Assembly (NCBI GenBank): GCA_039586365.1
Contig: JBDHKN010000006.1
Location: 32,001 to 96,000 of the forward strand
Source of the DNA: Gemmatimonadota bacterium
Lineage (GTDB): Bacteria; Gemmatimonadota; Gemmatimonadetes; Gemmatimonadales; GWC2-71-9
DNA length: 64,000 nt
Direction of reading: 5' to 3'
Shown: piece after piece, positions 2 to 34,457 of the stretch
How the letters are laid out: every line of letters begins with the position of its first letter
Numbering within the stretch: position 1 is the first letter of the stretch
Notes under the pieces: generated by a model
Database searches by the model: none
What the model saw: the letters and a program-made list of their open reading frames with translations, nothing else
What the model was told of the DNA's origin: nothing
Position numbers and translations under genes: made by a program

Positions 2-1264
2 TGTGAGCGTGCTGGCAAAGTGCTCGTGGGCGGAGTGAACAGTCCGGTGCGTGCCTTCCGAGCGGTGGGAGGCAAGCCGGTCTTCATAGACCGCATGGAG
101 GGTGCGTGCGTCCACGACGTGGATGGAAACACCTATGTAGATCTAGTGGGCAGTTGGGGGCCCTCGGTTGTGGGGCACGCGCACGCGGACGTGGTTGAGG
201 CGGTGCGAGAGGCGGCCGCACGGGGTCTGAGTTTTGGCGCTTGTTGTGCAGCGGAGGCTGAGTTGGCGGAACTCATCGTCGGGGCCGTGCCATCCATTGA
301 GCTGGTCCGGTTCGTCAACAGCGGTACCGAAGCTACCATGAGTGCGATCCGCCTCGCACGGGCCGCCACGGGTAGGTCCAAGATCCTCAAGTTCGTGGGG
401 TGCTACCATGGGCACGTCGACGGGCTGTTAGTGGCTGCCGGTTCGGGAGCGGCTACGTTTGGGGTGCCCGATTCGGCTGGTGTGCCTGCATCGTACACCC
501 GTGAAACCCTACTGGCTCAATTCAATGACTTGAAGGCAGTAGAACGGGTCATGAGCCGGCATGGCTCGGAGGTAGCCGCGATCTTGGTTGAGCCGGTGGC
601 GGGGAATATGGGCTACGTGGAGCCGGTTCGCGGATTCTTGGGGGGGCTGCGCACACTGTGCGATGAACATGGCAGCCTGTTGATCTTCGACGAAGTGATG
701 ACCGGCTTCAGGGTCGCGTGGGGCGGTTATCAGAACTCTTGTGGCATCAATCCCAATTTGACCTGCTTGGGCAAAGTCATTGGTGGTGGGATGCCGGTAG
801 CAGCCTATGGTGGTGCGAAGGAACTCATGGAGCTGGTGAGTCCTCTGGGGCCAACCTATCAAGCCGGTACGCTGAGCGGCAGCCCCGTCGGCATGGCTGC
901 CGGTATCGCGACTCTGAAGCTGTGCAAGGCGACCGGCTTCTACGATTCGCTACATGGCAAGTCCCTGCAACTTGCGCTGGGGCTCCAAGCAGCAGCAGCT
1001 GAGGCGGGTCTTACCGTGCAGACGGGTGCCACTGGAGGGATGTTGGGTATGGCTTTCCTGGACCGGCCGGTGCGCAACTTCGCTGACGCGCAGGCCTGCA
1101 ATCACGATCTGTTTGCTGCGTTCTTCCGAGCGATGCTGGACCGGGGCGTTTGGCTGCCACCCTCGGGATACGAAGCCATGTTCCTCTCCGCCGCGCACGA
1201 CGACGACGCGATCGGGCGGATTCTCGACGCAGCAAGAGAGAGCTTCCGAATTCGACTGCCATGA
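2..1264 (+). CDS. hemL: Glutamate-1-semialdehyde 2,1-aminomutase (5' end lies outside the window)
   Basis: GGVNSPVRAF, FVNSGTEATMSAIRLARA, YHGH, LIFDEVMTGFR and GKVIGGGMP (PLP lysine) motifs; frame is open back to the window start. Confidence 0.95.
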   Translation, partial: CERAGKVLVGGVNSPVRAFRAVGGKPVFIDRMEGACVHDVDGNTYVDLVGSWGPSVVGHAHADVVEAVREAAARGLSFGACCAAEAELAELIVGAVPSIELVRFVNSGTEATMSAIRLARAATGRSKILKFVGCYHGHVDGLLVAAGSGAATFGVPDSAGVPASYTRETLLAQFNDLKAVERVMSRHGSEVAAILVEPVAGNMGYVEPVRGFLGGLRTLCDEHGSLLIFDEVMTGFRVAWGGYQNSCGINPNLTCLGKVIGGGMPVAAYGGAKELMELVSPLGPTYQAGTLSGSPVGMAAGIATLKLCKATGFYDSLHGKSLQLALGLQAAAAEAGLTVQTGATGGMLGMAFLDRPVRNFADAQACNHDLFAAFFRAMLDRGVWLPPSGYEAMFLSAAHDDDAIGRILDAARESFRIRLP

Positions 1265-2151
1265 ACTCCCTACGTGTGGGAACTCGTGGCAGCGATCTGG
1301 CGCTATGGCAGGCGAACTGGATCTGTGATCGGTTGCGCGATACGCACTCAGGTGTGGCGGCCGAGCTAGTTGTCATCAAGACCCACGGTGACGTGACTGC
1401 GGATGAGAGGTTCGGTCGGACCTGGCCTGTAGGAGCGTTCGTCAGGGCGTTGGAAACGGCCCTGCTCGACGAGAGGATCGATGTCGCGGTGCACAGCTGC
1501 AAAGACCTGCAGACCACTCAGACGAGCGGGCTGCGGATTGCGGCAACGCCGGTGCGGGAAGTCGCGAACGACGTGCTCCTAACCAGCACGGGCGTACGAT
1601 TGGACAGCCTGCCTCCCCTCGCGCGCATCGGGACGAGCAGTCCGCGCCGGGCCGCCCAGATACTACAACTGGGGGACTTCGAGATCGTCCCTCTGCGGGG
1701 CAATGTTCCGACTCGTATAGCCAAGATGGAGCAGCAAGGTCTCGATGGGATCGTGCTGGCGGCGGCCGGGCTCAGGCGGTTGGGGATCGACTATCCCCAC
1801 GCGATCGACCTCCCCACGGATAGCTTCGTTCCCGCGCCGGGCCAGGGTGCGTTGGCGGTTCAGGTGCGTGCAGGGAGTGAAGCCTCGGAGCTAGTGACGG
1901 TCCTGGAGGATCCGCCGACGCGCGCAGCCGTTACCGCCGAGCGGTGTCTCCTCCGCGAGATCAACGCGGGCTGCCACACACCGGTCGGTGCGCTGGCCAC
2001 GGTGGATGCCGGGACGATATCACTCCAGGCGCAGTTGTTCAGTGACGATTACAGGCGCTGCGTGGCAGGTAGCGAGTCGGGTATGATTCCCGAGGTCATC
2101 GGAGCAAGCTTAGCCCGCAGACTGATGGAAGAGCTACGGGGCCGGCGGTAG
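1261..2151 (+). CDS. hemC: Hydroxymethylbilane synthase (porphobilinogen deaminase)
   Basis: ATG 1261 overlaps the hemL stop (ATGA); RVGTRGSDLALWQA, AVHSCKD, GTSSPRR, RGNVPTR, PAPGQGAL and AGCHTPVG (cofactor Cys). Confidence 0.95.
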   Translation: MNSLRVGTRGSDLALWQANWICDRLRDTHSGVAAELVVIKTHGDVTADERFGRTWPVGAFVRALETALLDERIDVAVHSCKDLQTTQTSGLRIAATPVREVANDVLLTSTGVRLDSLPPLARIGTSSPRRAAQILQLGDFEIVPLRGNVPTRIAKMEQQGLDGIVLAAAGLRRLGIDYPHAIDLPTDSFVPAPGQGALAVQVRAGSEASELVTVLEDPPTRAAVTAERCLLREINAGCHTPVGALATVDAGTISLQAQLFSDDYRRCVAGSESGMIPEVIGASLARRLMEELRGRR

Positions 2152-2158
2152 TAGCTGC

Positions 2159-3184
2159 TCAGCCGTGGGTTTCTTGCCACCAGCGGGCGTAGTCCAACGC
2201 TGCATAAGAGAATATCAGGTCTGCACCGGCGCGCGATATCCCCAAGAGCGCCTCTGTCATGCAGGCCCGGTAGTCGAGCCAACCCCTATCCGCCGCCGCT
2301 TTGATCATGGAGTATTCTCCGCTCACTTGGTATGCGGCGATTGGTAGTGCAGTACCTTTCCGGAGCCGGCTTATCACGTCGAGGTAGGGAAGAGCTGGTT
2401 TGACCATTAGGATGTCCGCACCCTCATCCTCGTCGAGCATGGCCTCGACTGACGCTTCGCGGGCGTTTGCCGGGTCAATCTGGTAAGTCTTTTTGTCCGT
2501 GGGGACGTTTGGGGCGGCAGCCGGGGCGGAATCGAGCGCCTCCCGAAATGGTCCGTAGTACCCCGAGGCATACTTTGCGGTGTAACTCAGAATAGCCACG
2601 TCAAACGCCTCTGCCGCGTCTAGGGCAGCGCGGATGGCGGCGACCCGCCCATCCATCATGTCGGACGGAGCGACCATGTCTGCACCGGCTTCCGCATGCA
2701 GCACGGCCATCCTGGCCAACATATCTACGGTTTCATCGTTGAGTATTGTCCCATCTGGAGAGACCAGTCCGTCGTGTCCATGACTCGAATAGGGGTCAAG
2801 AGCGATATCAGTGACAATGTAGGCTTCGGGGATCGCTTGCTTCAGAGTCTGAACCGCTTGGCAGAGCAGGTTGTCCGGATTCACCGCCTCCTGCGCATCA
2901 GGTGTCTTGCGAGATGGATCGATGGCAGGGAACAGAGCGAAAGCACCTAGGCCCAGCGAAAGGGCCTCCTTACATCGCTTGATGATTAGATCTACCGACA
3001 GGCGGGCATGGCCAGGCATCGCTTCGATCGGCTGGGATATGTTCCGACCAGCTACTGTGAACAGCGGCAGGACCAGGTGGTTGGGCCCGAGGTTGGCCTC
3101 CTGTACCAAGCCACGTATGACGGCGTTGCGTCGCAGTCGGCGGGGGCGACGCCACGGACGGGGAAGTTCGGACAGCGAATGCAT
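2159..3184 (-). CDS. hemB: Porphobilinogen synthase (ALA dehydratase)
   Basis: RPRRLRR, DIALDPYSSHGHDG, APSDMMDGRV, KYASGYYGPFREA, MVKPALPYLD and AYQVSGEY motifs. Confidence 0.96.
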   Translation of the reverse strand: MHSLSELPRPWRRPRRLRRNAVIRGLVQEANLGPNHLVLPLFTVAGRNISQPIEAMPGHARLSVDLIIKRCKEALSLGLGAFALFPAIDPSRKTPDAQEAVNPDNLLCQAVQTLKQAIPEAYIVTDIALDPYSSHGHDGLVSPDGTILNDETVDMLARMAVLHAEAGADMVAPSDMMDGRVAAIRAALDAAEAFDVAILSYTAKYASGYYGPFREALDSAPAAAPNVPTDKKTYQIDPANAREASVEAMLDEDEGADILMVKPALPYLDVISRLRKGTALPIAAYQVSGEYSMIKAAADRGWLDYRACMTEALLGISRAGADLIFSYAALDYARWWQETHG

Positions 3185-15470: not shown

Positions 15471-15510
15471 GAGTGTCGGTGGGAGTGAACGTGAGAAGGA
15501 AGGGTTTCTG

Positions 15511-18148: not shown

Positions 18149-18521
18149 CAAGGCAAAGGCAATTGCCGGTCTGGCTGTCTTCGTCGTTCTGGTGACATAT
18201 CCCTTCTGGTCCGGGCTGGGATCTGATGCAGAAGCTGGCGCACCCGAGCTGGAGCTGCCCGAGGACGAAGCCAATTGTGTGGAAGAGACGCAGTTTATGA
18301 CGGCGAACCACATGGACTTGTTGAACCAATGGCGGAACGCGGTAGTGCGCGACGGCGAAAGGGAGTACATGTCGACCTCAGGTGAACGGCACGTGATGAG
18401 CCTGACCGGTACGTGTATGGGATGTCACAGCAACAGGGACGCGTTTTGCACGCGGTGTCATGACTACTCGGACGTGTCACCGGCCTGCTGGGATTGTCAT
18501 GTCGAGCCGGAAGGGAGCTGA
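18141..18521 (+). CDS. dsrJ: DsrJ triheme cytochrome c
   Basis: N-terminal TM helix, HMDLLNQWR and three CxxCH (CMGCH, CTRCH, CWDCH). Confidence 0.93.
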   Translation: MTDKAKAIAGLAVFVVLVTYPFWSGLGSDAEAGAPELELPEDEANCVEETQFMTANHMDLLNQWRNAVVRDGEREYMSTSGERHVMSLTGTCMGCHSNRDAFCTRCHDYSDVSPACWDCHVEPEGS

Positions 18522-18524
18522 ACG

Positions 18525-19328: not shown

Positions 19329-19370
19329 CTTGCTACGCGCGACAATCGGGAGAACCAAGAGGTAGCCGCT

Positions 19371-20531
19371 ATGCTGGAAACCGCATTCCGCGGGGGTAGG
19401 AAGTATTGGATTCTCCTAGGGGTCTGGGGATTGTTGATCCTTGTTGGCTTGGGAGCCTATGGCAGGCAGTTGGTGGAAGGTCTGCGTATCACCGGTATGA
19501 GCCAAGACGTGACTTGGGGATTGTACATCGCGCAATTCACTTTCCTCGTCGGTGTGGCAGCTTCTGCAGTAATGGTGGTTTTGCCGTACTACCTGCACAA
19601 CTACAAGGCGTTCGGCAAGATGGTGATTCTGGGCGAGTTTCTCGCCATTTCGGCGGTGCTCATGTGCATGTTGTTCGTCTTCGTCGACATGGGTCAGCCC
19701 AGGAGGGTGCTCAACGTACTGCTCCACCCTACCCTCAACTCCGTGATGTTCTGGGATTTCCTGGTCCTTGGAGGCTACGGCATCATAAACTTCGTTGTCG
19801 GGGCCGTGACATTTGACGCCGAGCGGAAGGGAACCCCTGCGCCCAGGTGGATCAAGCCGCTAATCTACCTTTCGATCCCTTGGGCGGTCAGCATCCATAC
19901 GGTCACGGCCTTTCTCTATTCAGGGCTTGAAGCCAGGTCATTCTGGATGACCGCTATATTGGCTCCCCGTTTCTTGGCTTCGGCATTTGCGTCGGGCCCC
20001 AGCCTGTTGATCGTGCTGGCTCTGATTCTGCGGAGGTTCACCAAGTTCGACCCCGGCAAGGAAGCTATTCAGAAGCTGGCTCTGATAGTCACCTATGCGA
20101 TGGTGATTAACGTCTTCTTCGTAGGCGTCGAGCTGTTTTCCGGCCTATACAGTGACATGCCGCACCATGTGCATGCGTTCGAGTATCTGTTCGTTGGCCT
20201 GCACGGGCATGCCGCTCTCACTCCTTGGGTGTGGGTTGGCGAGGTCTTCACGGTGTGTTGTGTTGTGGGTCTGTTGATCCCCAAGGTACGTAGGCAGGAG
20301 AAGTACTTGGCAGTGCTTGCCGTTGGGGTGATCACCGCCATTTGGATCGAGAAGGGTGTCGCAATGGTGGTGACTGGCTTCATTCCGTCGCCACTGGGCA
20401 GGATAACGGAGTATGCGCCAACAGCGCCGGAGATCGCAATCACGATCGGTGTCTACGCGTTGGGGTTCTTCGTGCTTACAGTGCTTTACAAGATGGTTGT
20501 GAGTGTTAGAGAACAGTTGGATCTAGCTTGA
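19371..20531 (+). CDS. dsrP: DsrP NrfD-family membrane subunit
   Basis: [37 protein letters not shown] and APRFLASAF. Confidence 0.95.
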
Positions 20532-20574
20532 AAGAAGGAGCGGTAACAACGCCATCATTCCAAGACCAAAGGAG

Positions 20575-21801
20575 ATGACGATGGCAGACTTAGGTAGCAA
20601 CGGTACGCCGTTACTGGACGAACTGGAGAAAGGGCCGTGGCCCAGTTTTGTCACGGAAATCAAGCAGACTGCCGGGTTTAGCAAACCAGCCGAGCAGTTG
20701 TTGGCGTTGCTGGAACGGTCCTACAGAGAGAGAATTGGTCACTGGAAGCACGGCGGTATTGTGGGTGTGATGGGATACGGTGGAGGCGTGATCGGCCGCT
20801 ACAACGATCTACCTGAGGAATATCCGGAGATCGCCCATTTCCACACTCTGCGGGTCAACATGCCTACCGGTTGGTTCTACACGTCCGAGGCGTTGAGAAC
20901 GATCTGTGACATTTGGGAGAGACACGGCTCCGGATTGACAAACATGCATGGGTCCACGGGTGACATCATCTTGTTGGGCACCACGACGGACGAGCTCGAG
21001 CCGACTTTTGCCGAGTTGACTGCCAACAGTTTCGACCTGGGTGGATCCGGTTCCGATATGCGCACGCCTAGCGCGTGTGTGGGTCCTGCCCGGTGCGAAT
21101 GGGCTTGCTACGACACGCTACACCTGTGCAATGACCTTACACAACATTTCCAAGACGAGCTGCACCGCCCAGCATTTCCCTACAAGTTCAAGTTCAAGTG
21201 TGCGGGCTGTCCGAACGACTGTGTGGCGTCAGTAGCCAGAGCAGATATGTCGATTATCGGCACCTGGCGGGACGAGATCCAGATCGATCAGGCAGAGGTG
21301 AAAGCTGCGGCCAAGACGGGACTCGACATCCAGAAGGATGTCTGCTTCCTTTGCCCCACCAAATGCATCGAGTGGGATGGCAAGAAGCTGGAGATCGACG
21401 ACGAGAACTGCGTGAAGTGCATGCACTGTATCAACGTTATGCCCAAGGCGTTGCGCCCCGGCAAAGATCGTGGGGCGACGATTCTGCTCGGTGCCAAAGC
21501 ACCGATTGTCGAAGGTGCATTGTTATCCTCGGTGTTGGTCCCGTTCATGAAACTCGAACCACCGTATGATGAGCTCAAGGACCTCGTGGAGAGGATTTGG
21601 GATTTCTGGGGCGAGCACGGCAAGAACCGAGAGCGTGTGGGAGAGCTGATGCAGCGTGTGGGGCTGGGGAACTTCTTGGAGGCGATCGAGGTGGAGCCGA
21701 TTCCGGAAATGATCGCGTATCCGCGAGAGAACCCATACGTATTCTACGAAGAGTACTATGAAGAAGGCGAAGAAGGGGAAGAAGCGGAGGAGGACGAGTA
21801 A
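20575..21801 (+). CDS. dsrA: Dissimilatory sulfite reductase alpha subunit
   Basis: [37 protein letters not shown] and [14 protein letters not shown] siroheme-[4Fe-4S] site. Confidence 0.98.
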
Positions 21802-21863
21802 AGCAACCGGATCAGTGGATCCGACAGAGCATTAAAAAACAATCGTTCTTGGGAGATATATCG

Positions 21864-22940
21864 ATGGCAACCGAGAGAATAACTGATATCGGGCCTCCGC
21901 ATTACGAAAAATTCCTACCACCCGTGATAAAGCAAAACTACGGGAAGTGGAAATACCACGAGATCCTCAGGCCCGGCGTGATGGTTCACGTGGCCGAATC
22001 CGGCGACAAGCTCTTCACGGTGCGTGCGGCCTCACCACGGCTGCTCGGCATCAAGAAGATCCGCGAGTTCGCGGATCTGGCGGACAAGTATTGTGGTGGG
22101 CACCTCCGCTTCACTAGCCGCAACAACGTCGAATTCCTGCTTACGGACGATTCGAAGATCAACGATCTCATCGCCGACCTGAAGAAATTGGGACATCCGG
22201 TGGGCGGCATAGGCAACGCGATCTCCAACATCGTTCACACGCAGGGATGGGTACACTGCCACTCAGCTGCGACGGATGCATCCGGTGTTGTGAAAGCGGT
22301 GATGGACGATCTGTGTGGGTACTTCACTGGCGATATCGAACTGCCAGGCAAGCTGCGGGTCGCCCTTGCGTGCTGTCTCAATATGTGTGGTGCGGTGCAC
22401 TGTTCGGACATCGCGATCCTAGGTATACACCGCAGGCCGCCAAGAATCCAAGCTGGTCTGAATAAGGTATGCGAAATCCCCAACGTGGTGGCTTCCTGTC
22501 CCACGGCAGCAATCCGGCCGGCAACAGTTGACGGTGCTCCCACGGTAGAGATAGATGAAGAGAACTGCATGTTCTGCGCGAACTGTTTCTCGGTCTGCCC
22601 GGCACTACCAATGGCTGACGCGCTCAACGACGGTGTATCCATCTGGGTCGGGGGGAAAGTCTCGAACGCCCGCAAGGAACCAACCTTCTCCAAGCTGGCT
22701 ATTCCGTTCTTGCCCAACAATCCGCCGCGGTGGCCGGAGGTGACTGAGGCTGTGCGGAACATAGTGGAAGTATGGGTCAAGAACGCCCGCAAGTTCGAGC
22801 GGATGGGTGAGTTCATCGAGCGTATCGGCTGGCCCCGTTTCTTCAAGATGACGGGCATTGAGTTCGCTAAAGAGCATATTGACGATTACAAATACGCGGG
22901 CCTTTCGTACAAACGGTCTGCACAGCTCAGACACAACTAG
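21864..22940 (+). CDS. dsrB: Dissimilatory sulfite reductase beta subunit
   Basis: [41 protein letters not shown] and PNNPPRWPE. Confidence 0.98.
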
Positions 22941-22950
22941 GAGGTGTACG

Positions 22951-23196
22951 GTGGCCGTCACGCCCGAAGAAGTAGCGGACGCCATGTACGAGTTGGTCAA
23001 GGAGTATCAGGGCAAGAAGAAGCTCAAAGCCGGTGACTTGACCAAGGCGATGATCCAGAAGTATGGCGAAGGCGAAGTGGACAAGAAGCTGTGCAAGGCC
23101 GCCATCCGGACTCTGATGGATTCGGGAAGGTGTGTCTACACGTACTTCGGCGGCAGCTTCATAGAACTCCCGCCCGAGGAAGGCGTTGAGAGGTAG
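22951..23196 (+). CDS. dsrD: DsrD (small winged-helix activator of DsrAB)
   Basis: GTG after AGGAGG; 81 aa, KKKLKAGDL...LMDSGRCVYTYFGGSFI; directly after dsrB. Confidence 0.85.
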   Translation: MAVTPEEVADAMYELVKEYQGKKKLKAGDLTKAMIQKYGEGEVDKKLCKAAIRTLMDSGRCVYTYFGGSFIELPPEEGVER

Positions 23197-23308
23197 GCTG
23201 TCTCCCGGGGGGAAAGTGATGTCAGATGCATGCACTCTCCGCTCCCAGCGGGCGGAAGAGGCGTGTGTCTGTGACGATAGATAATCACGTGTCACGCGAG
23301 GTGATCGT

Positions 23309-24985
23309 ATGGCTATGAAGAAGGTCAAGAAAAAGAAGAAGTCTTTCGGTTCGAGGGGCGGCGCCTCGCGTGACCAATCGCCACTGCGACCCAAACACGT
23401 GGAGAAGAAGCCCCCATGTAGGGATACATGTCCGAGCGGCAACGATATTCGCAAGTTTCTGACGACGCTCGCTCATGCTGAGCGGCTAGGAAAGACGGCG
23501 GAGCAAGCACTCCAAGAAGCTTGGGAGGTCTACACGGACACTAGTCCGTTTCCGTCGGTGTGTGGCCGGGTATGTCCGGCTCCATGTGAAACCGGATGCA
23601 ACCGGAAGGACCTCGATGGTGCGGTGAGTATCAATAAGGTCGAACGGGCCATCGGCGACTTCGGTCTGGCGAGGGGTCTCAAGCTGAAGGCCCTCTCTGA
23701 TGAGAAGAAACCGCAGAAGATAGCCGTCGTAGGCGCGGGTCCCAGTGGCCTTTCCTGTGCCTACCAGCTGGCTCGGCGCGGATATGGCGTAACCGTCTTC
23801 GAGTCCACGGAGAAGACTGGCGGCATGTTGCGGTGGGGCATCCCCGGGTATCGGCTACCCGAATCGGTACTCGACGGAGAGATCCAGAAGATCCTCGACC
23901 TGGGAGTGGAACTCAAGTGCGGCGTGAAGGTGGGCAAGGACATCACCGTTGATGAGCTGAAGCAGTCATACGATGCCGTATACGTCGCGCTCGGCGCCCA
24001 GCAGGGAGTCACTCTGGGCGTTGAAGGTGAGGATGCTCCCAACGTGTTCTCCGGAGTGGATTTCCTCAGCCGTTTCCACCACGGTGAAAAGCTGGACCTG
24101 GGCAAGGATGTGGTGGTAATCATCGTCGGTGGAGGTGACACCGCCATCGACGCGGCGCGGATCTGCAAACGGCTGGGCGCCAATGTAACGATCCTATACC
24201 GCCGAACCCGCAAGGAGATGCCGGCGATCGATGAGGAAGTCGATGAGGCGATCAAAGAAGGCATCACAATCGAGTTTCTGGCCGCACCAATAGGTTTCCG
24301 CAAAGAGGGCGACCTCGTCGTAGCGATGCGAGCTATCCGCATGGAGTTGGGTGAGCCGGACTCGTCAGGTCGTCGTCGACCGGTTCCCATCGAGGGTTCG
24401 GAGTTCGAGATACCCGCCAGCGCAGTCATCTCTGCGGTGAGTCAGGCACCCGATTTCGGCGGCTTCGAGGATCTCATCGAAGGCAAGGATTGGATCAAGG
24501 TCGACAACCAGGGGGCAACCAAGGTGGCAGGAATATGGGCTGGTGGCGACGTGACAGCCCTGGATCTAGTCACGACTGCCGTAGGTCACGGTCGGCGCGC
24601 AGCCGAGGCGATCGAACGCAAATTCCTGGGCAGGCAATTCGAAGAAGACAGGATGACGGTGATCAGAAGTGATCGTATGCTGTTGGATCACTACGACAAG
24701 ATAGACCGTCAAGAACCTGCAGCCCTGGATGTTGGCGAGCGTTTGACCTCGATCGAAACGGAAGTCAACTTGGGTCTAACCGATGACCAAGTGCTGACTG
24801 AAGCGCGGCGCTGCATGAGCTGCGGATACTGCATCGATTGCGAGAAGTGCTGGATGTACTGTCAGGACCAGGCGATTGACAAGCCGCTGCAGAAGGGATT
24901 GCTGTATCCGTTCAAGATGCAGAACTGCACAGGCTGCAGTAAGTGTGCGGAAATATGCCCTTGTGGCTTCATAGAGATGCACTGA
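23309..24985 (+). CDS. dsrL: DsrL NAD(P)H:acceptor oxidoreductase (DsrL-2-like)
   Basis: PPCRDTCP, CGRVCPAPCE, GAGPSG, GGGDTAID, YRR (NADP-type) and C-terminal RCMSCGYC / CTGCSKCAEICPCG ferredoxin; inside the dsr operon. Confidence 0.9.
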   Translation: MAMKKVKKKKKSFGSRGGASRDQSPLRPKHVEKKPPCRDTCPSGNDIRKFLTTLAHAERLGKTAEQALQEAWEVYTDTSPFPSVCGRVCPAPCETGCNRKDLDGAVSINKVERAIGDFGLARGLKLKALSDEKKPQKIAVVGAGPSGLSCAYQLARRGYGVTVFESTEKTGGMLRWGIPGYRLPESVLDGEIQKILDLGVELKCGVKVGKDITVDELKQSYDAVYVALGAQQGVTLGVEGEDAPNVFSGVDFLSRFHHGEKLDLGKDVVVIIVGGGDTAIDAARICKRLGANVTILYRRTRKEMPAIDEEVDEAIKEGITIEFLAAPIGFRKEGDLVVAMRAIRMELGEPDSSGRRRPVPIEGSEFEIPASAVISAVSQAPDFGGFEDLIEGKDWIKVDNQGATKVAGIWAGGDVTALDLVTTAVGHGRRAAEAIERKFLGRQFEEDRMTVIRSDRMLLDHYDKIDRQEPAALDVGERLTSIETEVNLGLTDDQVLTEARRCMSCGYCIDCEKCWMYCQDQAIDKPLQKGLLYPFKMQNCTGCSKCAEICPCGFIEMH

Positions 24986-24989
24986 CCTT

Positions 24990-26399
24990 GTGAGCACACC
25001 GCGAGTACTGATCGCAGGGCTACGCGGAGGCAGCGGCAAGACGGTAATATCTCTGGGACTCGTGGCAACCTGGCGCAAGCAAGGTTGTCACGTTTCGCCC
25101 TTCAAGAAGGGACCAGACTACATCGATGCAGCCTGGCTATCGGCTGCGGCAGGCAAACCCTGCCGGAACCTCGATCTCTTCCTCATGACCCCAGATACGG
25201 TCCTGCGCTCGTTCGCAGCTGCGGCCGGGCCGGCCGACGTGGCTGTCATAGAGGGCAATCGCGGGTTGTTCGACGGCATGGACGCCCGGGGCAGCTACAG
25301 CACGGCCGAGTTGGCCAAGTTGCTGAAGAGCCCGGTGTTGCTCGCTGTCGATTGCACAAAGGCAACGCGTACCATCGCGGCAATGGTCCTAGGTTGTCAG
25401 AGACTCGATCCCAGCGTCTCGCTTCGCGGTGTCATTCTGAACAATGTGGCCGGTCCTCGGCACGAGTCGGTGCTGCGTGAAGCAATGGCTGAGATCAGCG
25501 GGCTGCCCGTGGTGGGTGCGCTGGGCCGAATCCCCGGAGAGCTCTTTCCAGAACGGCACCTTGGGCTCGTGCCACCCCAAGAGCACGAGCAATTGTCTCC
25601 AGCGATACAACAGGCCGCCAGTGCGGTCGAACAGCAGTTGGACTTGGCCGCCATCTGGGACATTGCGCGCCAAGCTCCAGAGCTCGACCCCCACGACTCG
25701 AATCCGACTGCCACAGGTGACGAGGGGCGGAATGCCGTCAGGATCGGTGTGTTCCGCGACGCTGCATTTCAGTTCTACTATCCCGAGAACCTCGAGGCCC
25801 TGGTTCGGCAGGGGGCGATCTTGCTGGAGGTTTCTCCGCTCCACGATACTGCGCTACCGGACGTGGATGCCCTGTACCTCGGGGGAGGATTTCCGGAGAC
25901 AGCAGCACCGGCGTTGGCAGACAACAGGCAATTCCTGGACTCGCTACGTGACTCAGTCAACAGTGGCTTGCCGGTATACGCAGAGTGCGGGGGAGCGGTC
26001 TTTCTGGGGGAGAAGCTCCTCTACAATCATAGAGAATACCCGATGGCGGGCATACTACCAGTCGTTTTCTGCTTCGAGGCAAAACCGCGGGGGCACGGCT
26101 ACGCCGTACTCGAAACCGTGGAGAACAACCCGTTTTTCACAGTCGGGGAATGTCTCCAAGGGCATGAGTTCCACTACACCCACATGCAGTCGTCTGCGGT
26201 GGAGGATCTGAAGTTCGCATTCCGGGTCCGTCGCGGCTATGGATTCGATGGCCAAAGGGACGGCTTGTGTTATCGCAATGTGCTCGCGTCCTACACTCAC
26301 CTGCATGCGTTGGGGACGGAGAGTTGGGCTCCGTCCGTGGTTCGGGCCGCCACCCGGTTCAAGTCGCGGAGCGCGAGCCATACTGGCGTTGGCCTCTAG
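24990..26399 (+). CDS. dsrN: DsrN siroheme amidase (cobyrinate a,c-diamide synthase family)
   Basis: GGSGKT, FKKGPDYID, PERHLGL, FQFYYPEN, YAECGG and GHEFHY; dsr context. Confidence 0.9.
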   Translation: MSTPRVLIAGLRGGSGKTVISLGLVATWRKQGCHVSPFKKGPDYIDAAWLSAAAGKPCRNLDLFLMTPDTVLRSFAAAAGPADVAVIEGNRGLFDGMDARGSYSTAELAKLLKSPVLLAVDCTKATRTIAAMVLGCQRLDPSVSLRGVILNNVAGPRHESVLREAMAEISGLPVVGALGRIPGELFPERHLGLVPPQEHEQLSPAIQQAASAVEQQLDLAAIWDIARQAPELDPHDSNPTATGDEGRNAVRIGVFRDAAFQFYYPENLEALVRQGAILLEVSPLHDTALPDVDALYLGGGFPETAAPALADNRQFLDSLRDSVNSGLPVYAECGGAVFLGEKLLYNHREYPMAGILPVVFCFEAKPRGHGYAVLETVENNPFFTVGECLQGHEFHYTHMQSSAVEDLKFAFRVRRGYGFDGQRDGLCYRNVLASYTHLHALGTESWAPSVVRAATRFKSRSASHTGVGL

Positions 26400-26411
26400 G
26401 AGGACGGAACC

Positions 26412-27065
26412 GTGCCGATCATCACAATCTCGCGGGGGACGTTGAGTGGCGGACAAGCGGTGGCTGAGTGTCTCGCTGGTAGACTTGGGTACCCGTGTGT
26501 CGGTCGCGAGATCGTTCAAGAAGCGGCCCGAAAGCTGGGTGTATCTGAGGAGACCCTGAGTGGGAAGTTCGAGACCCCCCCTGGACGATGGCATCGGCTG
26601 ACTAACGAGCGTAGGCTGTACCTTCACGCGGTTCAGGCTGCCCTAGCGGACCAGTGTGTGACTGGGGAGCTGGTTTACCACGGTCTGGCTGGGCAGCTGC
26701 TGCTGCGGGGCCAGCCCGGAGTGCTGCGAGCCCGGCTTATTGCACCATTGGATATGCGAGTGCGTGCCTTGACGGAAGCACACCATAGAATGAGCCCCAA
26801 GGCTGCGGAGGAATTCATCGAGAGCGTGGATGAAGACCGCAGGCGTTGGGTCAGACTGATGTACGGAGCCGACGTCGAGGACCCATCTCTGTACGATCTA
26901 ACGATCAACCTACAGTCCATTTCCACTGAGACAGCGTGTACGAGCATTGCGGAAGCGGTTGCACAGCCACAGTACAAGATAACGGACGAAGTAAGGGCGA
27001 AGCTGGAGGCGTTCGCGGCCCAATGCCACGAACAACTGCAGGCGGCTGCGTCGCAGCGCTCATGA
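26412..27065 (+). CDS. Cytidylate-kinase-like family protein
   Basis: IITISRGTLSGG, LVYHGLAG, RARLIAP and DPSLYDLTIN. Confidence 0.8.
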   Translation: MPIITISRGTLSGGQAVAECLAGRLGYPCVGREIVQEAARKLGVSEETLSGKFETPPGRWHRLTNERRLYLHAVQAALADQCVTGELVYHGLAGQLLLRGQPGVLRARLIAPLDMRVRALTEAHHRMSPKAAEEFIESVDEDRRRWVRLMYGADVEDPSLYDLTINLQSISTETACTSIAEAVAQPQYKITDEVRAKLEAFAAQCHEQLQAAASQRS

Positions 27066-27154
27066 GGCGGATGAACTGTTCATGCCGCTTGCAGGCACAA
27101 AGTTGGCTAGCAGGGCGAACTAGCGCCGTCGCCGACGTTAAAGAGGGCTGAAGA

Positions 27155-27973
27155 GTGGCGATCATTACCATCAGTCGAGGAAGCAAGAGTGGCGGGCAGG
27201 AAATGGCGGAATGTCTGGCCGCGCAACTGCAGTATCGCATCGTTGGACGAGAGATTGTACAGGAAGCGGCTACCAGGCTCGACGTTTCAGAGGAGGCCTT
27301 GAGCCACCAGATGGAGCACACACCCAAGCTGTGGGATAGGCATGCTGCGACGCGGCGGCTATATGTGGCGGCCGTGCAAGCGGCCCTCGCCGAGTATGTG
27401 GCCGAGGGAGATCTGGTGTACCATGGCTTGGCGGGACAACTACTCCTGAGGGGCCTACCGGCTGTGCTGCGGGTGCGGCTCATCGCACCGAGAGAGAGGC
27501 GGGTCCGAACGCTGGTGGAGACGCGTCAGATGGATGAGGCCTCGGCCGAAGAGTTCATTCAGCATGTCGATGGAGCACGTGCTCGCTGGGTCAAAATGAT
27601 GTACGGCGAAAACATCGAGGACCCGGCACTTTATGACATGGTGGTAAACCTGGAGACCATGTCTGTGCCCGGTGCCTGTGCTGCACTCGCGACTGTGGCA
27701 AAGCGGCCGGACTTTGCGGTTACTGGTGAGGTAAAGGCGTGTCTACGGGACTTTCGCTTGGCGTCCAACGTCAAAGTCGCGCTAGCGAGAGCACGTGAGA
27801 CACGGCCTCACATTCTGGACGTGTGGGTCAGAGGGGGCGTCGTCGAGATATCCGGCAGCGTTCCCGTCCTCAAAACAGGCCGGATGGGGGATCGTATCAG
27901 CGAGGTAGCACGTTCTGTCCCCGGCGTTGAGGAAGTCCGTATGAAGCTGCAGTGGTACGACCCGTATCCTTAG
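27155..27973 (+). CDS. Cytidylate-kinase-like protein with a C-terminal BON-like domain
   Basis: Paralogue of the preceding ORF (IITISRGSKSGG, DPALYDMVVN) plus V..GVVEISG...ARSVPGVEEV. Confidence 0.78.
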   Translation: MAIITISRGSKSGGQEMAECLAAQLQYRIVGREIVQEAATRLDVSEEALSHQMEHTPKLWDRHAATRRLYVAAVQAALAEYVAEGDLVYHGLAGQLLLRGLPAVLRVRLIAPRERRVRTLVETRQMDEASAEEFIQHVDGARARWVKMMYGENIEDPALYDMVVNLETMSVPGACAALATVAKRPDFAVTGEVKACLRDFRLASNVKVALARARETRPHILDVWVRGGVVEISGSVPVLKTGRMGDRISEVARSVPGVEEVRMKLQWYDPYP

Positions 27974-29102: not shown

Positions 29103-29549
29103 ATGTCTGAGGACGCAATAGAGTCGAGACCCAACGAAGAACAGTTGCTGTACGCCAAGATCCTGGAGATTGGCATGTTCGTTGGGCTGGGGCTTCTGCT
29201 CGTAACGTTCTTCCTCTATGTCTCTGGCATAGTCGCGCCGGCGGTGCCGGTTGAGGAATTGCCCAAGTATTGGGAAATGAGCGTCCACGATTATTTGGAA
29301 GCCACAAACCACGACTATGTACACCGGGAACACGCCATCACGGGTTGGTCTTGGCTCTCTGTACTTGGAAAGGGAGACTACCTCAATTTTCTGGGGATCG
29401 CCCTACTATCTGGAGTGACGGTCGTCTGCTATTTGGGGATTGTGCCGACGCTAATCAAGAAGAGGGATCTTGTCTTCGCTGCCATCTCCTTGATGGAAGT
29501 CGTGATCCTGACGCTCGCGGCGAGCGGCATCCTCAGTGTCGGGCACTAG
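29103..29549 (+). CDS. DUF1634-like small membrane protein (TSUP partner)
   Basis: Three hydrophobic helices, EQLLYAKIL...GWSWL...GDYLNF; follows TSUP. Confidence 0.7.
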   Translation: MSEDAIESRPNEEQLLYAKILEIGMFVGLGLLLVTFFLYVSGIVAPAVPVEELPKYWEMSVHDYLEATNHDYVHREHAITGWSWLSVLGKGDYLNFLGIALLSGVTVVCYLGIVPTLIKKRDLVFAAISLMEVVILTLAASGILSVGH

Positions 29550-29574
29550 CACTTGGGTTTCTGAAGGCGGCAGT

Positions 29575-30072
29575 GTGACTACTGATTCTAGCGGAACCAT
29601 GCGGTTCCTTCCGATAGGACTTGACGTCCGTGGCAGGGTTTGCCTGGTTGTTGGCGGTGGGAGTGTAGGGACTCGCAAGGCAGTGACACTTGCTCAGGCG
29701 GGTGCAGCCGTAACGGTAGTCTCGCCTGTCGTCACTGCTGAACTTGCCGAGCAGATACGCGCTGGCCGCATCAATTGGGTGGAGGGAAAGTTCCGAGACG
29801 GGCATCTGTCTGGTGTCTTCCTCGCGGTTGCTGCTACGGATGACGATGCCTTGAATGCCATAGTCGTCAGGGTCGCGGGGGAGCGTGGTGCCCTGGTCTG
29901 CGATGCCTCGTCAGCCGAGCGCTCTCAAGTGATCTTCGGCGCTGTGCTGGAGAGTGATGAAGCCACCGTTGCCGTCTTCACGGATGGCCGAAATCCAGCA
30001 CAGGCTAGGCGGACACGCGACCAGATTGCAGGTTTCATTGCCGCGGAACGCAAGGTTGGGCCTCAGTCCTGA
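29575..30072 (+). CDS. sirC: Precorrin-2 dehydrogenase (SirC/Met8/CysG-N-like), short form
   Basis: FLPIGLDVRGRVCLVVGGGSVGTRK, AVAATDD and AVFTDGRNP; start uncertain (GTG 29575 or ATG 29599). Confidence 0.75.
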   Translation: MTTDSSGTMRFLPIGLDVRGRVCLVVGGGSVGTRKAVTLAQAGAAVTVVSPVVTAELAEQIRAGRINWVEGKFRDGHLSGVFLAVAATDDDALNAIVVRVAGERGALVCDASSAERSQVIFGAVLESDEATVAVFTDGRNPAQARRTRDQIAGFIAAERKVGPQS

Positions 30073-30258: not shown

Positions 30259-32505
30259 ATGTCCACGTTCACCACAGACAGCTCGGCAACATCACCCATG
30301 CACCAGGGGCGTAGCTCGCTAGTGCCGGGGCGGCGGGGAGTGTTGTTGCTCAATCTGGGAATGCCTGGCCGAAGTGACCCTTCTTCCGTGCGCCAGTTCC
30401 TCTTGCAGTTTCTTGACGATCCTCTCGTCATCGGCTCGCTCCCGGAACTCAGGTGGCTCCGACGGGGTCTGCGCAGTTGGATGCTCCGCTTGCGGGCAGC
30501 GCGCCTGGTGGATTCCTGCCGCACATACAGGGAGGATAGCGGGTCTCAGCCGAACATCATTGCGGAACAGGCTGCTGCGCTGGGTGCTGTTCTTCCAGAG
30601 CACTGGCGGGTATTCACGGGTACACGCTATGGGGAACCATCGATCTCTGCAGTGCTGAAGCAGATGCAGGACGAGGGTATCGAGCGAATCGTGGCAGTAC
30701 CGCTGTATCCGCAATTCGACCAGGCGACCACAGGCACGATCATGCGCGAACTGTACCGTGTCGTGGGTGAAACGGCACGAAGTATGAGCCTTGCCACTCG
30801 TGCTGCGTGGCACGACGACAGCGGCTACGTGAGTGCCCAAGCGAGATTGATTGCGGAATGGGCACAGTCCCATGATCTGTGGCCGGATGACTCGCACTTG
30901 CTCTTCACGGCCTACGGTCCACCCGGTTCCGGCGTGCAGCGCGAAGATACGTACGCGCCACAGATGAGGAGAACGGTCGATCTGGTGGCTCAACGGTTAG
31001 GCTGGTCTGCGGATCTAGTGTCATTAGCCTTCCAGGGACGGTTCGGTATGGAGCCGGGCCCCGCATGTAGGCCCATCGCCGGCGACGAGCTGGAGCGACT
31101 TGCTCGTTTGGGTGTCAAGAAGGTGCTCGTCTGCCACCTCACCTTTGCCGAGCAGGGTGTGGGTGCCGTGCGGCAGATAGATGGGCAGTCCCAGAAGTTG
31201 TTCGCAGCAAGCGGAGGTCGTCTCCACAATTGCCCGACTCTCTACACACAGAGACCGTTTATCTCCGCGTTGCGAAGCTTGGTAATAGGAGGTCCTAGGC
31301 CGGCTTCGGGCCGAGGGGCTAAACCTCTTCTGGTGCCCAGACTCGACACGGGTCTGACGGACGACGATCCGAAGGCTCTGGTGATGATCGGGACGTCGCT
31401 GGCAAGGCGGCTGCGGTCCGGGCGCGGTCCGCATCTGAAGCACAACCACCCTGGCGTGTTCGCCAAGGTACGCAAGTCACGGAAGACCTTGCTGGGATTC
31501 CTGGATTGGGTCCGTGAGGAGGGGATTGTCAAGGAGGCGTTCGTCTGGAACACGTGCCAGCGGCTCGAGTTCTACGGATGGCTCGCGGATCCGGATGACT
31601 CCGTCGACCGCGAGTGGGTCGTCGCGACAGTGCGGAGCAGACTGTTCGAGACCGAACCAGAAGACCTCCATGTCAACGTGTTGTTTGGCGTCAACGCCTG
31701 GCATCACCTAATGCGCACAGCGTCTGGATTGAATAGCGCGCTGCCAGGGGACACGGACGTGGTGGCACAACTGCAAACGTCCTGCCAGATAGCCGAACGT
31801 GCGAGGGTTGCGGGCCCAATCGCAGCTCGACTGGTAAGGAGCGCAGTGGAGCTGACCCACAAAGTACGCGCTGAAACTGCGTGGGGCCAGTTCAGCTCTG
31901 GGTACTGCCTCGCTGCTCTGTCCCACGTTCGTGCAGTGAGCGGCGTCGATCTAGACGCGTGTCGCCACCTCGTCATTGGTGGCTCAGCCACGTCACGTTC
32001 AGTGCTGTCCACACTGTCTCAGGAGTTCGCTGTCCCCCAACATAGAATGACGTTGGCTTATCGAGACCACCATGGTCAGATGAAGCTATTGCGGGCGGCT
32101 CTCGGCCACGGCAAACGCCAGCGCGTGCATTCGTATTCAGAGGAAAGTGTCCTGCGCGCGATCGCTGACGCAGACTTTGTGTTTTTCGGTATCGATCACC
32201 CACAACCGGTATTGGACGCTGAGGTGATCGGTGGTTTGCGGGATTTCACGAAGCGACCTCTGACGATCGTCGATTTCAATAGCTATGGTTCAATGCGCTA
32301 CTCGAGTATCCCTGATGGTGTGAGAGTGTGGACCGAAGCAGAGTTGGATCGAGCAGTTGCGGCGTATGCCGACCTGATGTGCTCTCGGGCCGAGTTCTCC
32401 GCGGCCGTAGAAGCCATGGAAACGTGGATAGAAGACCGCCTACCGGTGTCCGATGTGGATGCTGACTCCAAGACTGAAATCAGTGCAGCCAAGAGTACTA
32501 TATGA
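30259..32505 (+). CDS. Fusion of a degenerate ferrochelatase (HemH-like) domain and a glutamyl-tRNA-reductase (HemA-like) domain
   Basis: N half: GVLLLNLG.P, VRQFL..FL.DP.VI, RYGEPSI, VPLYPQF. C half: NTCQRLEFY, HLMRTASGLNS, KVRAET and a Rossmann-like segment; one uninterrupted 748-aa ORF. Confidence 0.85.
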   Translation: MSTFTTDSSATSPMHQGRSSLVPGRRGVLLLNLGMPGRSDPSSVRQFLLQFLDDPLVIGSLPELRWLRRGLRSWMLRLRAARLVDSCRTYREDSGSQPNIIAEQAAALGAVLPEHWRVFTGTRYGEPSISAVLKQMQDEGIERIVAVPLYPQFDQATTGTIMRELYRVVGETARSMSLATRAAWHDDSGYVSAQARLIAEWAQSHDLWPDDSHLLFTAYGPPGSGVQREDTYAPQMRRTVDLVAQRLGWSADLVSLAFQGRFGMEPGPACRPIAGDELERLARLGVKKVLVCHLTFAEQGVGAVRQIDGQSQKLFAASGGRLHNCPTLYTQRPFISALRSLVIGGPRPASGRGAKPLLVPRLDTGLTDDDPKALVMIGTSLARRLRSGRGPHLKHNHPGVFAKVRKSRKTLLGFLDWVREEGIVKEAFVWNTCQRLEFYGWLADPDDSVDREWVVATVRSRLFETEPEDLHVNVLFGVNAWHHLMRTASGLNSALPGDTDVVAQLQTSCQIAERARVAGPIAARLVRSAVELTHKVRAETAWGQFSSGYCLAALSHVRAVSGVDLDACRHLVIGGSATSRSVLSTLSQEFAVPQHRMTLAYRDHHGQMKLLRAALGHGKRQRVHSYSEESVLRAIADADFVFFGIDHPQPVLDAEVIGGLRDFTKRPLTIVDFNSYGSMRYSSIPDGVRVWTEAELDRAVAAYADLMCSRAEFSAAVEAMETWIEDRLPVSDVDADSKTEISAAKSTI

Positions 32506-32548: not shown

Positions 32549-32905
32549 ATGCTGATCTTGATTGCACACGGCAGCCGGCGGTCAGAATGGAGAGCGTCTG
32601 CAGAGGGTCTGGTCAAATCGCTGCAAACGGACATAGGTCGCGACGCTGTACAGCTCGCTTACATGGATTGTACACCGCCGACGCTCATGGAAGTAGTATC
32701 CAAAGCGGTACAGCAAGGAATCAAACGAATTCGAGTGCTGCCACTATTTCTAACAGCCGAAGGACACGTGACCCGTGATATTCACCCTCTTGTGGAGGAG
32801 GCACGTGAGTCATATGCCGATGTTGTGTTGGAGCTGCTACCACCAGTTGGCCAGCATCCGATGTTCCTGGAACTACTGAAGACAATTGCCATCCGGGAGC
32901 CGTGA
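32549..32905 (+). CDS. Sirohydrochlorin chelatase (CbiX-S/SirB family)
   Basis: ILIAHGSRR and PLFLTAEGHVTRDI metal-binding His motifs. Confidence 0.85.
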   Translation: MLILIAHGSRRSEWRASAEGLVKSLQTDIGRDAVQLAYMDCTPPTLMEVVSKAVQQGIKRIRVLPLFLTAEGHVTRDIHPLVEEARESYADVVLELLPPVGQHPMFLELLKTIAIREP

Positions 32906-32909
32906 ATAC

Positions 32910-34457
32910 ATGACGACCGACGGAAGCAAACGGCCACCTGGTATCGTCTATCTAGTGGGTGCCGGTCCTGGGGATCCCGGTCTAATCACGCTGCGCGCTG
33001 TTGAGTGTCTTGGACGGGCCGATGTGGTCATATACGATTATCTCGTCAACCCGGTCCTAGTCAGGCACGCCGCGGCTGCTGCGGAACTCGTCTGTCTTGG
33101 TCGCCCAACTACAGGACGCACTGTCTCCCAGGCAGAGATCAACCAACTAATGCTGGAGGCGGCTCAGGACGGCAAGATAGTCGTGCGGTTGAAGGGTGGG
33201 GATCCCTCGGTATTTGGCCGTGGGGCCGACGAGACAGGAGCCCTGCGGGAGGCAGGAATCCCCTTCGAGGTTATTCCGGGCATCACAGCTGGCCTAGCGG
33301 TCGGAGCCTACTGCGAAATCCCAATTACCCATCACGAGGATGCATCAGCTATCGCGTTGATAACGGGTCGGGAACGTGACGAGAAAGGGGAGTCTGCCAT
33401 TGATCACGCTGCGCTGGCCCGCTTCCCTGGCACACTCGTCTTCTACATGGGAGTCGAAAAGGTGACTCAGTGGAGCCAAGGCTTGATCGGACACGGAAAG
33501 CCACCCGAGACTCCCGTTGCAGTCGTTCGGTGGTGCACGCGTGCCCAGCAGCAAGAGATCCGCTGCACGCTGGGTACGGTTGCCGATACCATTAGGGACC
33601 ACGCGCTGCGTCCACCGGCACTGTTCGTAGTAGGCAAAGCGGTGGACCGCGCGCCTGTGCGCTCCTGGTTCACAGAGCGACCGCTGTTCGGGCAGCGAAT
33701 TCTCGTACCGGGATCGCAGACAACGTCTGACAGACTGCGCGACAGACTTGCAGAACTCGGGGCGGATGCGATCACGCAGCCGGCGATTCGGATTAGCGAA
33801 CCGGCTGACTGGGCAGCCGTGGATGATGCACTGGACAAGCTTGGCCAATACGATTGGCTGGTGTTCTCGAGTGGAAACGGCGTTGACTACTTGCTCAGAA
33901 GAATTGAATACCGGGGTGGGGATGTGCGCTGGCTAGGACGCATCAAGCTTGCGGCTATGGGCTCGGGCACTGCCGAGCGGTTGGCCCACTATCACCTCAA
34001 AGCAGATCTGGTCCCTGCGCAGTTCGTGGCGGAATCCCTGGCGGGTACACTTGTGGGAGAAGCTGAACGCAGGCGATTTCTGCTGGCCCGGGCTAGCAGG
34101 GGTCGGGAAGTGCTGGCAATGGAGCTGAGAGAGGCTGGGGCCCACGTCGATCAGATTGTTGTGTACGACAGTGTTGATGTTGAGGAACCCGACCCTGACG
34201 TAGCCGCTCAGCTCACGGCTGGGGCGATCCATTGGATCACAGTCACGAGTTCGGCCGTAGCCCGCTCCCTGGTGAACCTCTACGGTGACGACCTTGCAGC
34301 GGCGAGAATCGCCAGCATCGGTCCAGTGACCTCTGGTACACTACGCGATTTGGGTCACGAACCTTCAGTCGAGGCCACGCCACAATCGATCGAGGGTCTG
34401 GTGGAGGCGATTCAGCGTTTGTCGACTGTCGACCGACGACTGACGATGCACGATTGA
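32910..34457 (+). CDS. cobA: Uroporphyrinogen-III C-methyltransferase / uroporphyrinogen-III synthase fusion (CobA-HemD)
   Basis: VYLVGAGPGDPGLIT, VVRLKGGDP..FGRG and PGITA, then WF..RPLFG, WLVFSSGNGV and SIGPVTS. Confidence 0.93.
   Translation: MTTDGSKRPPGIVYLVGAGPGDPGLITLRAVECLGRADVVIYDYLVNPVLVRHAAAAAELVCLGRPTTGRTVSQAEINQLMLEAAQDGKIVVRLKGGDPSVFGRGADETGALREAGIPFEVIPGITAGLAVGAYCEIPITHHEDASAIALITGRERDEKGESAIDHAALARFPGTLVFYMGVEKVTQWSQGLIGHGKPPETPVAVVRWCTRAQQQEIRCTLGTVADTIRDHALRPPALFVVGKAVDRAPVRSWFTERPLFGQRILVPGSQTTSDRLRDRLAELGADAITQPAIRISEPADWAAVDDALDKLGQYDWLVFSSGNGVDYLLRRIEYRGGDVRWLGRIKLAAMGSGTAERLAHYHLKADLVPAQFVAESLAGTLVGEAERRRFLLARASRGREVLAMELREAGAHVDQIVVYDSVDVEEPDPDVAAQLTAGAIHWITVTSSAVARSLVNLYGDDLAAARIASIGPVTSGTLRDLGHEPSVEATPQSIEGLVEAIQRLSTVDRRLTMHD

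Follow-up and report, generated by a model that had tools for sequence, protein, structure and literature searches.

A natural fusion of ferrochelatase-like and short glutamyl-tRNA reductase-like domains in a siroheme gene cluster: a probable reductase with a probably decaying chelatase

Why would the last and the first enzymes of haem synthesis be encoded as one protein, and within a cluster of siroheme genes? The question is raised by a gene at positions 30259 to 32505 (forward strand) of a 64,000-nucleotide stretch of a Gemmatimonadota genome, referred to here as the window (assembly GCA_039586365.1, contig JBDHKN010000006.1, positions 32,001 to 96,000). Its 748-residue product resembles ferrochelatase (HemH) in its N-terminal half and glutamyl-tRNA reductase (GluTR, HemA) in its C-terminal half. 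An earlier note on this DNA, made from the letters alone, suggested that an inactive chelatase acts here as a built-in tetrapyrrole sensor or dimerisation module, or else that the reductase has changed its substrate. The comparisons reported below, all of them between sequences, point instead to a GluTR that probably works without a dimerisation domain and supplies siroheme synthesis, with an attached chelatase that is likely a decaying vestige rather than a sensor.

One gene, two domains

The features of the fusion gene are as follows.

30259..32505, + strand: fusion open reading frame (ORF), 748 residues, N-terminal half ferrochelatase-like, C-terminal half like a short GluTR (ORF list, NCBIfam, Pfam, alignment with L104)
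30334..31284, + strand: ferrochelatase-fold domain, residues 26-342, likely catalytically dead (PF00762, E 9e-55; residue map to human FECH)
30913..30915, + strand: Tyr219 where human FECH has its catalytic His, H263 (from the residue map)
31153..31176, + strand: QGVGAVRQ (299-306) at the place of the pi-helix motif DCLETLEE, with Gly302 at the human E343 position
31372..31893, + strand: GluTR catalytic domain, about residues 372-545, with T432, C433, R435, E437, H483, S493, G497, D498, D500 and Q504 (Pfam, profile alignment, conservation)
31894..32358, + strand: divergent Rossmann domain, predicted to bind NADPH, with GGSATS (574-579), R602 and DFN (672-674) (profile alignment to 1gpj and 4n7r; conservation)
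32359..32448, + strand: likely stub of the spinal helix, with no dimerisation domain after it (profile alignment, domain search)

The ORF starts with ATG and has no internal stops. Pfam assigns residues 26-342 to Ferrochelatase (E 9e-55) and residues 409-540 to GlutR_N (PF05201; E 1e-18), and the NCBIfam hemH model (TIGR00109) matches residues 25-343 with 143.1 bits, above its cut-off of 124.6. These matches bear out the two halves that the earlier note had read, and the motifs that it quoted are all present. The architecture is not unique to this assembly: a scan of GTDB genomes yielded 375 confirmed stretches, the best 80 of which were kept and represent 74 loci, and both Pfam domains were found in 74 of 75 homologues, the window's own protein included (8000 candidates scored). 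Where the scan loci carry names these are Gemmatimonadota or Planctomycetota, mostly Phycisphaerae. The protein of locus L104 aligns with the query over residues 1-748 at 83% identity, and contigs from three other runs overlap the linker region with no indels listed; one of these, X1, covers 31135-32052 across the linker and may derive from the source sample itself. An assembly chimera or a frameshift read-through was rejected on the strength of the two-domain homologues, the end-to-end match to L104 and the indel-free contigs. The fusion is one real, conserved gene.

It is also a rare one, found in 4 of 301 sampled genomes of the window's phylum and 9 of 301 of the class to which genome G024 belongs (each sample includes its centre genome; six candidates were scored per genome). 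At 50% clustering, 95 representatives match the profile of the reductase half (E <=1e-30), and the Atlas contains an automatically named cluster of 143 members with both domains. Database labels of homologues already show the two domains. A full-text literature search, which reached few subscription papers, found no paper on a HemH-HemA fusion, in line with the earlier note, which had known of no described example. HemH-HemA-HemN triple fusions were seen in some Planctomycetota (L064:8945-13141, L073:9905-13246 and P0128), where read-through or sequencing error is possible. A scan for promoters and terminators gave counts no higher than chance.

The reductase half

The GluTR motifs of the query, NTCQRLE (431-437), HLMRTASGLNS (483-493) and GDTDVVAQ (497-504), were compared across 117 aligned sequences. 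All 117 have T432, C433, E437, H483, S493, P496, G497, G574, S576, T578 and DFN, whereas R435 and Q504 occur in 116 and R602 in 115; the retention of the catalytic Cys, Arg and His (C433, R435 and H483) described in the earlier note thus holds in 116-117 of the 117. By profile alignment, query residues pair with T47, C48, R50, H84, S94 and Q105 of the Methanopyrus kandleri structure 1gpj, the catalytic Cys of GluTR and its Thr, Arg, His, Ser and Gln substrate residues. The unusual motifs of this half are themselves near-invariant family traits. GGSATS stands at 574-579 in place of GAGEMG, as had been noted. GDTDVVAQ does differ from the canonical substrate motif at D498, the position of M. kandleri E99, where the family has Asp in 98 of 117 sequences and Glu in 19; its second acidic residue, D500, is nothing out of the ordinary, since the corresponding E101 is acidic in M. 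kandleri too (GEQEILRQ).

A family profile built from 53 reductase halves matches 1gpj (E 3e-19) only up to residue 293 of 404, and no match to the dimerisation domain PF00745 was obtained in the query at E 0.01. The loss of this domain had been noticed before, but it is wholly rather than mostly absent. A Cys-rich C-terminal tail with a CxxC motif, possibly a metal site, was observed in 12 of 41 fusions with an intact chelatase (e.g. L013, L036, L043 and L046) and in 0 of 25 tails of the siroheme-type fusions, those found in siroheme clusters. The tail was rejected as a general iron-sulphur site because CxxC is present in a minority of intact tails and is absent from the query.

Reductases of this short kind also exist alone. 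Stand-alone relatives of 348-403 residues have neither a chelatase nor a dimerisation domain; some of them lie on contigs of 38-235 kb, one is named Cyanobacteriota, and they branch before the fusions in a quick tree with canonical HemA as outgroup, a placement that carries a long-branch warning. A sister clade of stand-alone proteins of 348-378 residues (P0194, P0195, P0197, P0202, P0204, P0206, P0207, P0209 and P0211-P0213) has the motif GSG(S/N/G)T(A/T) and likewise no dimerisation domain; one member is labelled as a hypothetical protein of a Cyanobacteriota bacterium. These relatives bear on the idea that the chelatase fold stands in for the missing domain, holding two reductase halves together to dock HemL. 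Apart from the absence of the dimerisation domain from the fusion, the idea can draw on the homodimeric state of human ferrochelatase (PMC9133952) and on chelatase residues such as R181, W184, D187, Y190 and W249, which are invariant or nearly so in decayed copies. We consider it improbable: the earlier-branching stand-alone proteins do without either domain, copies free of HemH occur in siroheme clusters, only 40% of the siroheme group retain the counterpart of L311, a dimer residue in the human enzyme (Cys270 in the query), and short HemA-family clusters without the dimerisation domain are common in the Atlas.

Whether the reductase half supplies 5-aminolevulinic acid (ALA) can be judged from the genomes that carry it. 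In the source genome (G000, 86% complete), the fusion is the sole HemA-like and the sole ferrochelatase-like gene, so that what the earlier note had said of hemA in the window is true of the whole genome, with no canonical hemA found elsewhere in it. A search of 50 carrier genomes, which account for 50 of the 74 loci, found a canonical HemA over the cut-off in 15, a match just under it in 1 and none in 34. No ALA synthase exceeded the cut-off in any of 51 genomes, the matches being lower-scoring relatives, and ALA synthase was rejected as an alternative entry for this reason; HemL was over its cut-off in 44 of the 51. Phycisphaerae have the fusion as the first gene of an operon that also holds hemN, hemE, hemY, hemB and often hemD, hemC and hemL, and in 25 Planctomycetota genomes with such an operon no other HemA and no ALA synthase were found. 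Immediately before the intact fusion, 23 Planctomycetota loci (e.g. L035:4312-4851) carry a conserved ORF of about 180 residues, which has no Pfam or NCBIfam match.

The invariant catalytic residues, the lack of another HemA or ALA synthase and the haem-operon context together make a working GluTR the likeliest function and a changed substrate unlikely. It might still be argued that this half acts on another aminoacyl-tRNA or thioester, or is no reductase at all, given the prevalence of Asp at the E99 site, the non-canonical invariant Pro496 and GGS(T/A)TS, and the canonical HemA alongside it in 16 of the 50 carriers. However, Glu also occurs at that site, and the second acidic position agrees with M. 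kandleri; a GSGS(T)A-like motif in the sister clade bridges to the canonical one, and the same motifs stand at the head of complete hemN-hemE-hemY-hemB-hemD-hemC-hemL operons in the 25 genomes just mentioned. A changed substrate is therefore very unlikely, and this part of the earlier note finds no support.

By analogy with the canonical enzyme, Cys433 would attack Glu-tRNA, and the resulting thioester would be reduced to glutamate semialdehyde by NADPH bound in the divergent Rossmann domain. HemL would convert this product to ALA, from which HemB, HemC, CobA-HemD, SirC and CbiX would build siroheme for DsrAB.

The chelatase half and its probable decay

In the query the segment LLFTAYG (214-220) places Tyr219 at the catalytic His site, a substitution shared with P0002, P0003 and L104. 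Eight of 16 scored pocket and interface residues are kept, namely the equivalents of human FECH N75, R115, S130, R164, Y165, Y191, Q302 and F337, while H263 is replaced by Tyr, E343 by Gly, D340 and E347 by Gln, Y123 by Cys, S303 by Gly, W310 by Ala and L311 by Cys. Two of the three propionate binders (R115, Y123 and S130 in FECH) are thereby retained as R79 and S96, with Cys87 in place of Y123. The earlier note was right that the catalytic residues are gone, but its register for the second motif needs correction: the aligned segment is QGVGAVRQ, and E298 does not occupy the position of the catalytic Glu. The chelatase half is likely to be catalytically dead. That it remains active, for instance on sirohydrochlorin, is extremely unlikely; its score above the TIGR00109 cut-off and the position of its gene between sirC and cobA would agree with activity, but both His and Glu are lost, every human H263 variant reported as tested was inactive (PMC9133952), and a CbiX chelatase is encoded directly downstream.

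The state of the chelatase follows the company that the gene keeps. The fusion gene of the window sits between a SirC-type dehydrogenase and the CbiX chelatase, with CobA-HemD next and a dsr/apr/qmo-type cluster upstream, these last gene names resting partly on sequence features and gene order. A context table of 75 rows (the 74 loci and the query) has 7 rows without informative neighbours. In 38 rows hemN, hemE or hemY is nearby, and of the 37 that could be evaluated 36 have the His and the full acidic motif, the remaining one differing by a Glu to Asp change. Siroheme or dsr genes are the neighbours in 30 rows, and the full motif is present in none of these: His or Glu is lost in 19, both are kept without the rest in 6, the domain is missing in 3 and the sequence is cut off in 2. 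The three loci that lack HemH altogether (L039, L049 and L042, the last with SirC fused in its place) have the same siroheme neighbours, and a profile search detected no remnant of HemH in them. SirC joined to a short GluTR, the chelatase being replaced, was observed at L042:8265-10013 and in P0075, P0107, P0110, P0111 and P0116. Both forms are present in one genome, G015, where the intact copy belongs to a haem operon and the decayed copy follows dsrN. Among 61 sequences lacking His or Glu, 53 have a shortened N-terminal segment, some of which may be partial gene calls, and only 3, one of them an intact-type case of Glu to Asp, have equivalents of R115, Y123 and S130 all present.

Rates of change tell the same two groups apart. 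The median ratio of HemH to GluTR distances is 0.64 in intact copies and 1.76 in siroheme-type copies, meaning that the chelatase part evolves more slowly than the reductase in the former and faster in the latter. Between the query and L104, the ratio of nonsynonymous to synonymous substitution rates (dN/dS) is 0.41 for residues 26-109 (the HemH N-terminus), 0.28 for 110-342 (the core) and 0.14 for 372-730 (GluTR). Pairwise comparison puts the dN/dS of the chelatase core above that of the reductase in 8 of the 10 siroheme-type pairs that could be evaluated and in 1 of the 7 intact ones, by a simple counting method applied to pairs that are not independent (L017-L020, being saturated, was excluded). 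Trees built from the reductase half group the query with named Gemmatimonadota records, and this decayed Gemmatimonadota clade is nested among intact Phycisphaerae fusions with a Shimodaira-Hasegawa-like approximate likelihood ratio (SH-aLRT) of 100; a second decayed group (L024 and L048) lies elsewhere. Within the decayed clade, 14 of the 16 scored residues are still present in P0004, which comes from a cluster that includes a Gemmatimonadales record, and other sub-clades retain 1-10 of 16, having lost different ones. This link between decay and gene context fits a loss of function after the gene moved to a pathway in which CbiX is the chelatase, the fold being kept while it remains fused.

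The history may have run as follows. The leading gene of a haem operon in Phycisphaerae would have arisen when a member of the short stand-alone GluTR clade joined an intact protoporphyrin ferrochelatase. The fusion gene would then have entered dsr/siroheme clusters on two or more occasions, one of which took it to Gemmatimonadota. In that setting the chelatase active site would erode because CbiX chelates and no protoporphyrin route was found, and the folding needs of the fused domain would keep its core under moderate selection until it is deleted.

A number of observations weigh against a working reductase with a vestigial chelatase. The fusion scores only 76.9 bits with the NCBIfam hemA model (TIGR01035), far below the cut-off of 209.55, and its NADPH site lacks GxGxxG, having GGSATS with a family-invariant G-x-S-x-T, though R602 and D672 are kept. 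The canonical HemA in 16 of the 50 carriers makes the fusion sometimes redundant, and the carrier genomes are incomplete metagenome assemblies of kin that are not independent. Both His and Glu are retained in six siroheme-context copies; the second copy in G032, beside cbiX/cobA, is a nearly intact exception; and the query's own sub-clade retains N32, R79, S96, R123, Y124, Y150 and F296 along with the shared Tyr219. All the trees are quick ones without bootstrap, and L055 was too short to enter the tree of the reductase half. Finally, all dN/dS intervals lie below 1, so that the HemH half is still under purifying selection, and about 34 chelatase positions are at least 85% conserved in the siroheme group, which is not a neutral pattern. 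Neutral decay of the whole gene, a possibility left standing by the earlier note, was rejected on these intervals; selection on the chelatase half is relaxed but not neutral.

Continued selection would also agree with another role for the dead chelatase, that of sensing tetrapyrroles or holding haem within the chain and so controlling the reductase, with the iron possibly bound by Tyr219. The dead human variant E343K co-purifies with protoporphyrin (PMC9133952), and ALA synthesis is described as the regulated step in organisms that use the C5 route (PMC13564367). The three closest relatives of the query share Tyr219 and most residues of the upper pocket, and two of them keep all three propionate binders. 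Such a pocket is, however, poorly preserved in the wider group: the complete set of binders is confined to the 3 of 61 sequences noted above and the N-terminal segment is shortened in most, the four close kin read C, Y, R and Y at the Y123 position, dN/dS in the query peaks in the N-terminal part of the pocket, and three loci tolerate deletion of the whole chelatase. A sensor is accordingly unlikely here. The role proposed in the earlier note keeps some footing in the pocket and Tyr219 of the closest kin, and loses ground to the intact copies in haem operons, the variable losses and the deletions. One bolder version, which we would also rate as doubtful, has the haem made by the ferrochelatase of Phycisphaerae throttling the attached reductase, and the dead chelatase here serving as a Tyr219-ligated sensor of haem or siroheme, in a genome where no protohaem route was found though cytochromes b and c are likely encoded. 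The window copy is most likely one point on a series of decay that begins with an intact fusion.

Surrounding genes and known systems

The neighbouring genes of the window that belong to the pathway are listed here.

29536..30072, + strand: SirC/CysG-N-type precorrin-2 dehydrogenase, possibly starting further downstream (above the TIGR01470 cut-off with 103 bits)
32549..32905, + strand: CbiX-type chelatase, likely a sirohydrochlorin ferrochelatase (PF01903, E 2e-23)
32886..34457, + strand: CobA-HemD fusion, uroporphyrinogen III methyltransferase plus synthase (profile matches)
20..1264, + strand: HemL, glutamate-1-semialdehyde aminomutase, 3' part within the window (TIGR00713, above cut-off)
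1150..2151, + strand: HemC (PF01379, PF03900)
2159..3184, - strand: HemB (PF00490)
20575..26399, + strand: dsrA, dsrB, a small ORF, a dsrL-like gene and dsrN (CobB-like), whose products probably use and modify siroheme (ORFs; NCBIfam cobB, PRK12771)

The SirC-like protein spans positions 1-145 of the 205 in the CysG N-terminal model, the C-terminal part being missing. The small ORF at 22957-23196 (+ strand) lies in the gap between dsrB and dsrL, the usual place of dsrD, and is conserved in 14 loci without a Pfam match. Between dsrN and sirC, positions 26412-27973 (+ strand) hold a tandem pair of cytidylate-kinase-like genes, of which the second also encodes a BON domain, followed by a TauE exporter, a block that recurs in many Gemmatimonadota loci. 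Elsewhere in G000 there is a second aprA-like gene (C16:820-2703), 75% identical to the copy in the window.

HemE, HemN, HemY, HemJ, ChdC, AhbA/B, AhbC and AhbD were not found in the 86%-complete G000, which gave only weak radical-SAM and URO-D-family matches, and 8 other carriers are likewise without canonical HemA, HemE and a separate HemH. The window nevertheless encodes likely haem b and c proteins at 12005-13072, 15430-16500 and 18066-18521, named here as QmoC-, DsrM- and DsrJ-like. Uptake, a route of another kind or gaps in the assembly could account for haem proteins without a protohaem route. The window was also compared with loci L132, L133 and L126. Against the siroheme cluster of G032, which is recorded as Phycisphaerales, identities are 77, 57 and 72% for HemL, HemC and HemB of the window (20-3184); against a haem operon from Gemmatimonadota they are only 54, 48 and 46%. 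For DsrK, DsrA and DsrB (16505-26399), identity to the proteins of G015, recorded as Phycisphaeraceae, is 88, 84 and 90%. These identities across phyla suggest exchange of the whole cluster between phyla.

The findings point to an undescribed clade of GluTR free of the dimerisation domain and missed by annotation, being below the hemA cut-off and usually labelled ferrochelatase, although it is the sole candidate for ALA entry in 34 of 50 carrier genomes. This clade bears on whether the V-shaped dimer and GAGEMG are needed for GluTR activity and for channelling to HemL. The intact Phycisphaerae form, a natural fusion of the first and last enzymes of a feedback-controlled pathway, is the better object for the question of built-in feedback. 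Copies range from intact ones, through those with His and Glu kept, His or Glu lost and the N-terminus deleted, to those in which the domain is gone or SirC has taken its place, and this natural series documents cleanly the decay of an enzyme domain once its pathway has changed.

Compared with canonical GluTR (TIGR01035; M. kandleri 1gpj and Arabidopsis 4n7r), the fusion shares GlutR_N, Thr-Cys-x-Arg, the His, Ser and Gln residues, a Rossmann domain in the same place and HemL in the same genomes. It differs in having at best about 28% identity, a score below the cut-off, PG(D/E)x(D/E) for GExQ/E, GGS(T/A)TS for GAGEMG, an N-terminal ferrochelatase and no dimerisation domain, whereas the three-domain dimer forms part of the general account of GluTR and its mechanism (PMC6399207). 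With HemH/PpfC (TIGR00109; human FECH 1hrk/2qd3) the query shares a full-length fold match over 25-343, but it is without the catalytic His and Glu, and no protoporphyrin pathway was found in its genome; dead human ferrochelatase can hold protoporphyrin via R115, Y123 and S130 (PMC9133952). Plant GBP offers the concept of a tetrapyrrole-binding partner that controls GluTR (PMC6597238), yet it is a separate protein of another fold. A further parallel is the CpfC-ChdC (HemH-HemQ) fusion of Cutibacterium acnes, likewise a natural ferrochelatase fusion in the haem pathway and the one that a 2026 review names (PMC13564367). CpfC-ChdC joins consecutive last steps and both of its halves are taken as active, whereas the fusion described here joins the last step to the first.

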